DNA of 14,905 nt from an uncultured archaeon (GTDB lineage Archaea; Asgardarchaeota; Lokiarchaeia; Sigyniarchaeales; SOKP01). Positions 9,766 to 13,148 of this stretch are shown one piece after another. Numbering within the stretch: position 1 is the first letter of the stretch; every line of letters begins with the position of its first letter. The stretch is from assembly GCA_964493715.1 (NCBI GenBank), contig CAZBPC010000084.1, forward strand, positions 1-14,905, in the 5' to 3' direction. Below the pieces are notes generated by a model. That model was not told the origin of the DNA. It worked only from the letters and a program-made list of their open reading frames with translations, and searched no databases. The translations under genes and the position numbers were made by a program.

Positions 9766-11337
9766 ATGGCTGAGTTTAGTAATAATTGGAATACTGATAA
9801 GGAAATTATTAAACCGGTTAAAAAGAAGAATAATGTTAAGATAGAGGTTAAAAATTCTGAAATTGTAAATGGCCACCTCCTTGATTTTAAAGAGATTGAA
9901 GATCCATTTGAAGAATATAACGATTTTAATCCTTCTGAAGATAGTAATAAAATTTTGAAAGAATTCAATGAATTTAGTCCAACTGAAGCAGTTACAGAGC
10001 TTTCACCTCGTAAAACAAAATGCAAAGAAATAAATTATAATTTAAAAATTAAATCTTTACCAAAGAAAGCCAGAAATATAATTTGTGAAGAAATCTATAA
10101 AAAATTAAATGAGAATAGTACTGTTTCAAATTCCATAATTGTAAAAACAATAATCCAAGATATAAGAAATATTAAAAAACAACCGAATTGGATAAGTAAA
10201 ATACAGAATACTGAATTGAAAGAAGTAAGGATTAAACTGTCTAAGATCAGTGTAAAGAATGATATTGAAAATAGTTTTGTAAAATATTTTTATGATCTTG
10301 CTAATTTGGTTGAACATATGAGAAATTTAATTAAGAAAGACCAACCTATTAATTTTTCAAAACTCAGTCGTAATTTAATAGAACAAGGTAAAGGTTTAAA
10401 TTTAACTAAAAGAGGTTTAGAAGAAATTATTTCAGGAGTTTATACATATTTTAAACAAAATCTAGAAGATTTCAAACTTGAACGGGCTAAAAGAAAACCG
10501 ATCTCAGGAACTGAATCAGAGAAGGAATCAATAAGATGTTTACGAAAAGAATATAAATTGTTAATTGAGATATATAATGGTCAAATTGCTGGAAAATGCT
10601 CAATTTCAAATTGCAATACTGATTTCACGCGATTACCTGCATTCGACTTTCATCATGAAGATTTGAATATTAAAACTATTTCTTGGAATGAAATAATGCA
10701 CAAAAAATATTATGAAATAAAAAAAACCTTAGAGGCTCAAAAAGTAAAACCTATTTGTAAAAATTGCCATTTACCTAAAAATGCCAAAATTTTCAATGAT
10801 TTTAAATCTATAATATTGAAGAAAGACTTATTTTCTTTTTCAAGTAAAAATATTGATAAACTTATAAATTTGGAAGTAGATAATTATAAAATTAACGATG
10901 ATACAAACTACACGGCTGCGTCACTAAAGATTGAAGTAAAGAGATGGATAAAAAAAAGGGCTGTTATTGAACAAGTTTTCAATGGAAAGTGTGTTTCTTG
11001 CGGAGAAAATCGCCTTCCATCTTTACAAACACACCATACTAATCAAGATCTTAAAGTTCATAGATGGGGTGATATTTCTCGTAAATGGAGTATTAAAGAA
11101 TTAATCAATAATTATATTATCAAAGAAGAATGTGTGTGTTTATGCGGAAATTGCCACGCTATGATAAATACAAAAAATTTTGAAAACAACGTGGATAAAG
11201 TACTTGGGGATAAATATGTTCAAGAAGTTAAAGAAGATTATTATAAGATTAAATCCGCTATTATGAAGGATGTGAACAGAATTAAAAAAATCAAAAATGG
11301 CATATGTAACCTAACAGTTAAGGATTATTTAAAATAA
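9766..11337 (+). CDS. Protein with two tandem Zn-binding HNH-like endonuclease domains
   Basis: Domain 1 (about 10591-10770): GKCSISNC...RLPAFDFHH...PICKNCH. Domain 2 (about 10984-11157): GKCVSCG..RLPSLQTHH...CLCGNCH. Acidic low-complexity N-terminus. Confidence 0.75.
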   Translation: MAEFSNNWNTDKEIIKPVKKKNNVKIEVKNSEIVNGHLLDFKEIEDPFEEYNDFNPSEDSNKILKEFNEFSPTEAVTELSPRKTKCKEINYNLKIKSLPKKARNIICEEIYKKLNENSTVSNSIIVKTIIQDIRNIKKQPNWISKIQNTELKEVRIKLSKISVKNDIENSFVKYFYDLANLVEHMRNLIKKDQPINFSKLSRNLIEQGKGLNLTKRGLEEIISGVYTYFKQNLEDFKLERAKRKPISGTESEKESIRCLRKEYKLLIEIYNGQIAGKCSISNCNTDFTRLPAFDFHHEDLNIKTISWNEIMHKKYYEIKKTLEAQKVKPICKNCHLPKNAKIFNDFKSIILKKDLFSFSSKNIDKLINLEVDNYKINDDTNYTAASLKIEVKRWIKKRAVIEQVFNGKCVSCGENRLPSLQTHHTNQDLKVHRWGDISRKWSIKELINNYIIKEECVCLCGNCHAMINTKNFENNVDKVLGDKYVQEVKEDYYKIKSAIMKDVNRIKKIKNGICNLTVKDYLK

Positions 11338-11457
11338 GAATAATTTTATTGATTTAATTTGATGATCTTGAAGAAAAGAAGAAATTTTTTTTAATAATCT
11401 TAAATTAGATTTAATTAGTTAATTTTTTAAAAATGGCCCGGTTCGTATAGTGGTTAG

Positions 11458-11503
11458 AATATAAATCTGGAGAATTTTCAGATCCCAGAACTTATATAAC
11501 CAA
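11458..11503 (+). other. tRNA intron 1, 46 nt, position 22/23 (D-arm), BHB type
   Basis: Central helix GGTT (11452-11455)/AACC (11498-11501), bulges AGA and AAT, inner helix ATATAA/TTATAT, outer helix TAGT/ATTG with wobbles. Confidence 0.88.
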
Positions 11504-11526
11504 TATTGGGGACTGTGAATCCCTAG

Positions 11527-11556
11527 AAGTATAAGTAATTCCTTAATACTGGGGAA
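11527..11556 (+). other. tRNA intron 2, 30 nt, position 45/46 (variable loop), BHB/BHL type
   Basis: Central helix CCCT (11521-11524)/GGGG (11551-11554), bulges AGA and AAA, inner helix AGTAT/ATACT. The outer helix is weak, so this is a relaxed motif. Confidence 0.85.
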
Positions 11557-11706
11557 AGGCGAGTTCAATTCTCGCATCGGGCCCTATTTTATTTTCAATT
11601 CAATCCATTTACTTTAGAATGTTTTTTTCTGAGTTATAAAGTAGAAAATTAATATTTTTTGATATATTTTCAATTATAATTTAAAGATGATCTTCAGGAT
11701 TACAAT

Positions 11707-12177
11707 ATGGTCGATTTAGATTTAGACAAACTTCGAGATTTACCTGGATGGAAAGGGGCCCCAATCCATATTTGCATGGATGCAGATTATCGTGGATTGA
11801 CTTTTTGTTGCAAACCAGGATATTCCTTGACATTTGGTTATAAATGTAAGAGAGACGAAACTCTAAGTGAAATAGGACTTTCTCCTGAAGAATTTATTCG
11901 AGTTAAGGAAGATTTTTCTAAAGAAAATAACTGGGATTCTGATGTTGTTTGCTTTGGTTCAATGTCATATTGTTGCATGCGTCGTGGAGGGTGTCCAAGG
12001 AGAGATTTAGCACTTTTCGATAGATATCCAAATAAAACGAAAGAAGAAATCATGGAAATTTACTATAAAAAAAAACGAGAATTAGCTATTAGGATCTTAA
12101 AAGCTGTTGATAACCCTAAAGGCAAGGAAAAAGTTATGCCTTACATTATCCTCTTAGAGAATGATAATAATTTATAG
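11707..12177 (+). CDS. Methanogenesis marker 9-like cysteine-rich protein
   Basis: 'WKGAPIHICMDADYRGLTFCCKP...IGLSPEEFIRVKEDF...CFGSMSYCC...CPRRD' follows the two-repeat CC pattern of marker-9 domains as I recall it. Confidence 0.78.
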   Translation: MVDLDLDKLRDLPGWKGAPIHICMDADYRGLTFCCKPGYSLTFGYKCKRDETLSEIGLSPEEFIRVKEDFSKENNWDSDVVCFGSMSYCCMRRGGCPRRDLALFDRYPNKTKEEIMEIYYKKKRELAIRILKAVDNPKGKEKVMPYIILLENDNNL

Positions 12178-12191
12178 GAGTTTATTGTTTT

Positions 12192-13148
12192 ATGATTGTT
12201 TCACTTACACATGAACATGATCTTGATGGATTAGGTTCCCAAGCGATAATTAAACGTTATTTTGATTTGAATAATAAACGTGATTCAAAAAATTTAATGC
12301 TTCTTTATGCACAATATATTGATTTTAGTGATAAGATTAAATTTATCTTGAACTTTGATAAGCTCCCAAAGGAATTGATTATTTCAGATATAGGTTTTAA
12401 TGAAGAGTTTATGGAGATTTTTCCGCTAATTAAAAAAGCATATACCCTTAGTTGTAAAATTTCTTGGTTTGATCATCACATTGTTGATCCCAGAGTCAAA
12501 GAAAAAATAAGATCGATGTCATCTATCTATTTAAATGATGAAAATAGGTGCGCTGCTGAAATCGTTCAGAATTATTTTTTACCAAATGATGATATAGCAA
12601 TTCGCATCGCAGAATTGGCTCGAGATTCTGACTTTAAAACAAAAAAATTCCAGTTCGCGACAAATCTTCAATCTATTATTGGTTATAATAGAGGAGAAGA
12701 AAAATTACTTGAAAGGAGGTACTTGGTCGATTTGCTCTCAAAAGGGGAGTTTTCTCATCCGTGGTTTGATTCCCAATTAAACGAAATACAGTACTGGATT
12801 GAAGAACAATCTAATTTAGCTTTGAATACAGCAACAAAATATAAACTGGATAAAGATAAGGAGTTCATTATTTCTTTTTCTGGAATTGGGGGAGGTAAAA
12901 TAAATGATATTGTACGAGAAAAGTATCCCCAAATATTTGCGTATATTGGAATAGATATACGCTATGGTGAAATCATAATCCATAGTGAACATATAAATTG
13001 TCGTGATTTTGCAATTTCGTTTGGTGGTGGTGGTCATGAAGAAAGAGCGGGTTTTAAATATATGCACATTCAATTAGATGATGGTAAACTAAATCCTCAG
13101 TTTATTCAAGATATGAAATCAAAATTAATTAATCAATTAAAGGATTAA
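12192..13148 (+). CDS. DHH/DHHA1-family phosphoesterase (nanoRNase-like)
   Basis: Motifs HEHDLDG, ISDIG, WFDHH and C-terminal GGGGHEERAG; 14 bp after the upstream gene. Confidence 0.9.
   Translation: MIVSLTHEHDLDGLGSQAIIKRYFDLNNKRDSKNLMLLYAQYIDFSDKIKFILNFDKLPKELIISDIGFNEEFMEIFPLIKKAYTLSCKISWFDHHIVDPRVKEKIRSMSSIYLNDENRCAAEIVQNYFLPNDDIAIRIAELARDSDFKTKKFQFATNLQSIIGYNRGEEKLLERRYLVDLLSKGEFSHPWFDSQLNEIQYWIEEQSNLALNTATKYKLDKDKEFIISFSGIGGGKINDIVREKYPQIFAYIGIDIRYGEIIIHSEHINCRDFAISFGGGGHEERAGFKYMHIQLDDGKLNPQFIQDMKSKLINQLKD

Follow-up and report, generated by a model that had tools for sequence, protein, structure and literature searches.

The window analyzed here (14,905 nt) is an entire contig, C84, of the draft genome G000, which comprises 3.68 Mb in 160 contigs at 31% GC and is rated 100% complete and 3.85% contaminated. 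Two forward-strand open reading frames (ORFs; 9766-11337 and 11707-12177) enclose a gap of 369 nt, and within this gap sits a tRNA-His gene whose three exons are separated by two introns. The parts of the gene, and a feature directly downstream, are as follows.

11435-11457, + strand: exon 1, 23 nt, with G-1, the 5' strand of the acceptor stem, the 5' strand of the D-stem, the D-loop and G22
11458-11503, + strand: intron 1, 46 nt at position 22/23, missing from intron-free orthologues
11504-11526, + strand: exon 2, 23 nt, with the 3' strand of the D-stem, the anticodon arm, A44 and G45
11527-11556, + strand: intron 2, 30 nt at position 45/46, missing in G024, G007 and other genomes
11557-11583, + strand: exon 3, 27 nt, with A46, G48, the T-arm, the 3' strand of the acceptor stem and the discriminator C73
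11587-11595, + strand: two T4 runs directly downstream, read from the sequence as a candidate oligo-T terminator

The introns follow G22 and G45 in standard tRNA numbering, and the anticodon GTG occupies 11515-11517 in exon 2. When the exons are joined by coordinate with a script they yield 73 nt, called by ARAGORN as tRNA-His(GTG) with a normal cloverleaf: a 4-bp D-stem, an 8-nt D-loop with GG, a 5-bp anticodon stem, a 4-nt variable loop and a 5-bp T-stem with a UUCAAUU loop. G-1 (11435) is encoded and pairs with C73 (11583), extending the 7-bp acceptor stem into an 8-bp helix, and the product carries both tRNA-His identity features, the GUG anticodon and the G-1:C73 pair. The base directly after C73, at 11584, is another C. 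Base composition sets the parts of the locus apart, with 55% GC in the exons, 28% in intron 1 (28-30% for the introns) and 12-14% in the flanks; TATA-like words upstream are uninformative because the preceding 100 nt have a GC content of only 12%. The two T4 runs likely represent an oligo-T terminator.

Standard tools do not see this gene in its genomic form. ARAGORN, with or without its intron option, called no tRNA in the genomic DNA of the feature, and Rfam gave no match there at the gathering score, nor did relaxing the threshold to E<=10 bring up any tRNA, just as the first-pass annotation of this DNA had warned. That annotation had proposed a cryptic tRNA-His with bulge-helix-bulge (BHB) introns at 22/23 and 45/46 but not at 37/38, an exact 73-nt cloverleaf after cutting, and the junction words GGTTAG|TATTGG and CCCTAG|AGGCGAG. 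The junction words agree with the exon coordinates given above, the cloverleaf is the one called by ARAGORN on the joined exons, and the intron positions are borne out by ARAGORN, by motif scoring and by the alignments of relatives described below. Our own search, which combines BHB removal with ARAGORN and was blind to the earlier coordinates, arrived at these two introns in its best solution, and the T-arm in exon 3 was recovered separately by a T-arm scan. The interrupted gene is not an assembly artefact: it is present in contigs from four independent DNA runs, one of which spans all 421 nt compared, and no intron-less DNA form was seen in the contigs of those runs. One of the runs (X3) carries T>A at 11532 and at 11539, both in intron 2, with unchanged exons; this strain-level variation is confined to the intron.

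The central 4-bp helix (H) of a BHB motif has a 3-nt bulge on the 3' side of each of its strands, and it may be flanked by an outer helix (h) and an inner helix (h'). The two sides of the motifs found here are located as follows.

11448-11464, + strand: 5' side of BHB-1, with h at 11448-11451, H at 11452-11455, the bulge at 11456-11458 (cut after 11457) and h' at 11459-11464
11492-11508, + strand: 3' side of BHB-1, with h' at 11492-11497, H at 11498-11501, the bulge at 11502-11504 (cut after 11503) and h at 11505-11508
11521-11532, + strand: 5' side of BHB-2, with H at 11521-11524, the bulge at 11525-11527 (cut after 11526) and h' at 11528-11532
11546-11557, + strand: 3' side of BHB-2, with h' at 11546-11550, H at 11551-11554 (GGGG) and the bulge at 11555-11557 (cut after 11556)

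The motif of intron 1 has an h of 4 bp (UAGU/AUUG), an H of 4 bp (GGUU/AACC), an h' of 6 bp (AUAUAA/UUAUAU) and the bulges AG|A and AA|U, and with both flanking helices present it belongs to the strict hBHBh' class. That of intron 2 has an H of 4 bp including one G.U (CCCU/GGGG), an h' of 5 bp (AGUAU/AUACU) and the bulges AG|A and AA|A; it is assigned to the relaxed HBh' class because its outer helix amounts to a single U.G pair. The earlier description of two BHB motifs cut at the 2|1 position thus stands for both cut positions and for the strict form of intron 1, and has to be relaxed for intron 2, whose placement can moreover shift by one base (45/46 or 46/47) with no effect on the product. 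As regards the criteria for BHB tRNA introns, both have four central pairs (nH=4) and 3-nt bulges, and their removal restores a canonical tRNA. Such motifs are rare by chance. Among the 13,065 (start, end) pairs in the precursor and 30 nt on either side of it, four combine a full H with an h' of at least 5, and the true boundaries account for two of these four; in a sample of 200,000 random places of the genome a motif as good as or better than the one observed arises at rates of 7.5e-5 (46 nt) and 2.6e-4 (30 nt), and shuffled introns reach the observed quality at 5e-5 (intron 1) and 1e-4 (intron 2).

Related genomes supply a view of the exon boundaries that does not depend on the motif. A BLAST search with the region against 40 related genomes gave matches in 20 of the 24 genomes of the same genus, and a second one with an intron-free orthologue gave matches in 117 of the 149 genomes of the order (G000 included) and in 112 of the 129 of the same family (f1). 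Outside that family the order-wide matches are weak, at 76-83% identity (3/14 genomes in f2, 1/4 in f4), and nothing is claimed there because they may be other tRNAs. Spliced alignments were made for the 20 loci of the genus search (17 resolved, one partial and two spurious, L019 and L020, which were dropped) and for the best 30 of the order-wide loci. They resolve tRNA-His in 43 genomes, which are the best-ranked matches and not a random sample. The variable-region introns of G013, G019 and G018 were registered at 45/46 by inspection, on the grounds of a full central helix, and the T-loop intron of G020 and G016 was not resolved by the spliced aligner. The locus is syntenic: the downstream 156-aa ORF recurs in 44 of 47 related loci. 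This ORF (11707-12177, + strand), which lies directly downstream of the tRNA-His gene, matches no Pfam family; its identity in those 44 loci is 61-90%, and the next gene usually codes for a DHH-family protein (12192-13148 in the window).

Six of the 43 genomes (G007, G086, G105, G056, G080 and G046) hold an intron-free tRNA-His at the same syntenic locus. Between the gene of G086 and the window's spliced product, a single compensatory T-stem pair is the only difference. Against the Rfam tRNA model RF00005, with a gathering score of 29, it scores 55.4 bits and the gene of G007 57.4 bits, so that the poor covariance-model score named by the first-pass annotation as telling against its own reading is not what this near-identical orthologue returns. 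Exon 1 is 100% identical in 13 of the 17 resolved genus loci. In two relatives that lack one of the introns (intron 1 in G015, intron 2 in G024) the neighboring exons abut exactly at the claimed junctions. Because intron-free relatives and those without one of the two introns match the junctions exactly, the exon boundaries are supported independently of the motif.

The intron at 45/46 is found in 26 of the 43 genomes, in homologous forms of 29-31 nt, and that at 22/23 in nine; both occur together in six, and the genome of the window is the only one of the 43 with exactly these two and no other. With about 11/12, 15/16, about 32/33, 58/59 and the canonical 37/38, which are occupied elsewhere among the 43, introns are seen at seven or more positions of this gene. 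All four central pairs are formed in 28 of 34 introns of the genus relatives, where only product-neutral slides were allowed, and in 34 of 37 introns of further family loci, scored as the best of seven registers, a procedure that yields a full central helix by chance in about 16% of cases (from 2.5% per register). The pairing is also preserved through sequence change. For the intron at 45/46 (12 genomes, 11 distinct rows) all 44 of the 44 cells of the central helix are paired, and in two of the rows one exon-intron pair has changed on both sides, from C-G to U-A; the first two pairs of h' are always formed, alternating between A-U and G-C, and overall 84.5% of the cells are paired, against 40-60% with the partners slid. 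For the intron at 22/23 (8 genomes) the pairing of h and H is complete (100%) in 8/8 relatives, pairs of h' change on both sides, and the overall figure is 90.2% against 24-49% with the partners slid. No shuffle out of 500 reached the observed covariation score for either intron, figures that are not probabilities because the genomes are related, and for which the slid controls are the fairer comparison. To judge from these alignments, both motifs are evidently under selection and kept by compensatory change.

The genome also encodes the enzymes that the processing of such a gene would call for. Two of its genes, on contig 5 and contig 58, code for proteins with both EndA domains (PF01974 and PF02778). 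The contig 5 protein (207 aa) is most like the catalytic subunit of Aeropyrum pernix EndA (3P1Z_B; E=1e-36 over 181 residues). It shares with the A. pernix enzyme (PDB 3P1Z/3AJV) the residues Tyr, His and Lys, which we take to be the catalytic triad of EndA, and a Lys and an Arg that align with K44 and R46 of the Crenarchaea-specific loop; the loop segment is free of gaps, and a single 1-residue gap lies 10 residues upstream of it. The contig 58 paralogue (205 aa) is nearest to the EndA of Methanocaldococcus jannaschii (E=9e-21) and carries Ser at the site of the catalytic His, as would suit a structural beta subunit. From these two sequences the enzyme would be an (alpha-beta)2-type EndA, and the first-pass annotation, which had called for a suitable splicing endonuclease, appears to have been right in this respect. 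The likeness to A. pernix has its limits, in that the identity is moderate, the second subunit is nearest to the M. jannaschii EndA and not to a crenarchaeal beta subunit, and the enzyme is known here from its genes. A. pernix EndA, an (alpha-beta)2 enzyme with the Crenarchaea-specific loop, is reported to cut a D-loop BHB intron (PMC3241643), the loop conferring cleavage of D-loop and relaxed motifs with a requirement for K44 (Hirata et al. 2011, PMC3241643). According to the accessible part of Kaneta et al. 2018 (PMC5829648), (alpha-beta)2 EndA with the L1 loop occurs in Asgard archaea, with which the two-subunit EndA found here agrees. Close relatives of the alpha subunit come from metagenome-assembled genomes (MAGs) titled Promethearchaeota or Promethearchaeia, and the earlier assignment to a probable Asgard archaeon therefore holds.

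A gene for the ligase RtcB is present as well. At this locus (G000:C2:10967-12309, - strand) the Pfam model is matched in two pieces, 1-47 and 48-426, which lie 30 nt apart in separate open frames of 129 and 428 aa; the split may reflect a frameshift, a misassembly or just an N-terminal extension.

Taken together, these observations very probably describe a functional tRNA-His gene whose product matures through splicing by EndA and RtcB at two BHB motifs. We infer the following course of events, from transcription through cleavage to ligation. Transcription would give a precursor of about 150 nt, which would fold locally into the two BHB motifs; a heterotetrameric (alpha-beta)2 EndA would then cut each 3-nt bulge after its second nucleotide, RtcB would join the three exons, RNase P would leave the encoded G-1 in place and CCA would be added. 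BHB-1 borrows the D-loop G18G19UU of the mature tRNA and part of its D-stem, and BHB-2 borrows nucleotides 40-43 of the anticodon stem, pairing them with an intronic GGGG that mimics G27-G30. Because both motifs use sequence of the mature tRNA, the precursor would have to be out of the cloverleaf fold at the time of cutting, and cutting would thus precede cloverleaf formation or compete with it.

The same data can be set against a reading in which the locus is a decaying pseudogene that has suffered two insertions, with a working tRNA-His residing in an unassembled part of the genome. Drafts in as many as 160 contigs often miss tRNA genes, which lends this reading some initial plausibility. 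ARAGORN (27 genes) and RF00005 (26 matches) together delineate 29 tRNA loci in the assembly, none of them for His, and no second copy of any exon exists anywhere in it. The intact tRNA-His elsewhere that would have favored a pseudogene, and which the first-pass annotation had named among the things that would refute its reading, is hence absent from the rest of the assembly by ARAGORN, by RF00005 and by the exon-copy search, and the interrupted gene is apparently the only tRNA-His of the 160-contig draft. Decay also fits poorly with exons that differ from their counterparts in intron-free orthologues in compensatory pairs only, with two insertions that fall exactly in BHB motifs kept by compensatory change, and with the retention of the same sites, at the same syntenic locus, in the 26 and nine related genomes mentioned above. 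A pseudogene is accordingly very unlikely.

A second alternative accepts that the gene is real and proposes that its intervening sequences are removed by another nuclease or at shifted boundaries, or are otherwise tolerated, their likeness to BHB motifs being incidental. Folding energies give it some footing. The minimum free energy (MFE) of the precursor is -47.7 kcal/mol, and the exact motifs are not part of that fold; enforcing BHB-2 gives -46.3 kcal/mol (a cost of 1.4), BHB-1 -42.0 (5.7) and both -40.6 (7.1), which places the exact folds 1.4-7 kcal/mol above the predicted MFE. The MFE fold does hold H and h' of intron 1 already, with the bulge shifted by one base. The one-base slide of intron 2 and its lack of an outer helix point the same way. 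Against it stand the chance rates of the two motifs (7.5e-5 and 2.6e-4), the full central helix in 28/34 genus introns and 34/37 family introns (where about 16% would be expected for the latter), and a genome that encodes the type of enzyme shown experimentally, as reported in the accessible parts of PMC3241643 and PMC5829648, to cut such substrates. We regard an incidental likeness as highly improbable. Finally, the notion that no gene exists here and that AT-rich intergenic DNA resembles one by chance, for which the failure of standard finders on the genomic DNA might be adduced, deserves practically no credence, since it is refuted by the ARAGORN call on the spliced product, the RF00005 scores and the conserved orthologues, whose exons are preserved at 100% while the introns vary in sequence and presence.

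Reading the locus as a spliced gene also bears on the tRNA complement of the genome as a whole. The genome is rated 100% complete, yet ARAGORN, run with its intron option, leaves ten amino acids without a tRNA (Asn, Asp, Cys, Gln, Glu, His, Met, Phe, Trp and Tyr); two loci found by RF00005 only are Phe-like and Lys-like by eye, which would bring the number down to nine. The tRNA-His gene explains this pattern, as one in which tRNAs are present but broken by non-canonical introns. The BHB-removal search yields further candidates, for Gln CTG, Val TAC, Lys CTT, Lys TTT, Gln TTG and Arg CCT, most of which carry a T-loop intron of about 30 nt. They are leads only, because ARAGORN is permissive on spliced combinations and often proposes several isotypes per region. 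Example leads from the ARAGORN, RF00005 and BHB-removal survey of G000 are listed here.

Leads in G000: C1; C2:62178; C2:83774 (- strand); C34:3617 (- strand); C45:19369; C83:2266; C17:36149-36282; C34:27908-27978

A scan for intact T-arms returned 18 unannotated candidates, of which three have an acceptor partner, one of these three being the tRNA-His gene itself; with so few partners (3/18), most of the missing tRNAs probably have interrupted T-arms too. Inferences on codon usage, completeness and translation for such MAGs hence require intron-aware tRNA calling. A tRNA-Sec(TCA) gene is also present in this genome (G000:C26:15798-15885, + strand).

Non-canonical and multiple tRNA introns were reportedly described in Crenarchaeota/Thermoproteales by Marck & Grosjean in 2003 and by Sugahara in 2007 and 2008. 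The gene analyzed here resembles those cases in its enzyme requirement, an (alpha-beta)2 EndA with a specificity loop. It resembles them also in its intron positions and in the logic of its hBHBh' and relaxed HBh' motifs (PMC4090602), and a 2014 review places both 22/23 and 45/46 among the known non-canonical archaeal intron sites (PMC4090602). In Thermoproteales related introns turn up in different tRNA genes, whereas each of the two introns described here is present as a single copy in its genome. The end of intron 1 does find a 17-nt exact match on contig 158, in coding-like DNA without tRNA exons, which was judged to be chance.

The first-pass annotation had held that such genes are mainly described in archaea of the Thermoproteales type, a view now outdated by Asgard cases published in 2024 (PMC11291895) and 2026 (bioRxiv 10.64898/2026.10.13.758758). 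Valentin-Alvarado et al. 2024 (PMC11291895) report introns in 92-95% of the tRNA genes of three Asgard genomes, many of them non-canonical and multiple and some missed by tRNAscan-SE. In a 2026 preprint covering 90 Asgard genomes, Goswami et al. (bioRxiv 10.64898/2026.10.13.758758) report that tRNAscan-SE misses about 30% of the intervening sequences in their focal families and 25% in other Asgard families, that the missed sequences are mostly in the D-arm, that gains occurred repeatedly, that BHB motifs are enriched six- to ten-fold and that two-subunit EndA is widespread. Kaneta et al. 2018 had noted that incomplete Asgard tRNA sets point to undetected disrupted genes (PMC5829648). The locus described here shares with the Asgard cases (PMC11291895; bioRxiv 10.64898/2026.10.13.758758) the presence of several non-canonical BHB introns in one gene, missed D-arm introns, differences in presence and absence between close relatives and a background of (alpha-beta)2 EndA. 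Unlike them, as far as the accessible parts of those reports go, it belongs to a lineage labelled Promethearchaeota/Promethearchaeia, the published cases being centered on Atabeyarchaeia and Jordiarchaeia/Freyarchaeia. The main text of Goswami et al. 2026, in its accessible form, contains neither 'Loki' nor 'Prometh' nor 'tRNA-His', and its supplementary tables may list this gene or its relatives; our literature search found no paper describing this tRNA-His gene.

To the extent that these sources are accessible, then, both the intron positions and heavily interrupted Asgard tRNA genes are already published (the 2014 review and the reports of 2018, 2024 and 2026), and the gene would not surprise specialists after the 2024 and 2026 reports. 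It leaves the understanding of the splicing mechanism unchanged. What it adds is the extension of heavily interrupted Asgard tRNA genes to a family of the Promethearchaeota/Lokiarchaeia type, together with one orthologous locus in many intron states, useful for studies of intron turnover.

Tentatively, the syntenic tRNA-His locus of family f1 might be viewed as a natural series of recent and repeated intron gains and losses, although we hold this to be rather doubtful. The introns at 22/23 fall into two sequence families with no evident likeness outside their motif-constrained ends. Those of the first group (G000, G014 and G010) resemble the intron of the window and end in ..UAACCAA, and those of the second (G012, G004, G002, G011 and G022) start with UGG or UGU and end in ..CAACUAA. 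If the two families are independent insertions at the same motif-competent site, the locus would offer a tractable system for studying the arrival of archaeal tRNA introns. The 46-nt intron of the window itself resembles a 31-nt form with 15 extra nt in its hairpin. A different kind of disruption is seen in G008, where all that is left of tRNA-His at the syntenic locus (L009, G008:C9, ~1532-1565) is its 3' 34 nt, which match those of the window exactly. This fragment abuts unrelated coding-like DNA, and a full gene with an intron at 15/16 lies on another contig (L110); the fragment looks like what remained after a mobile element had integrated into the tRNA gene.
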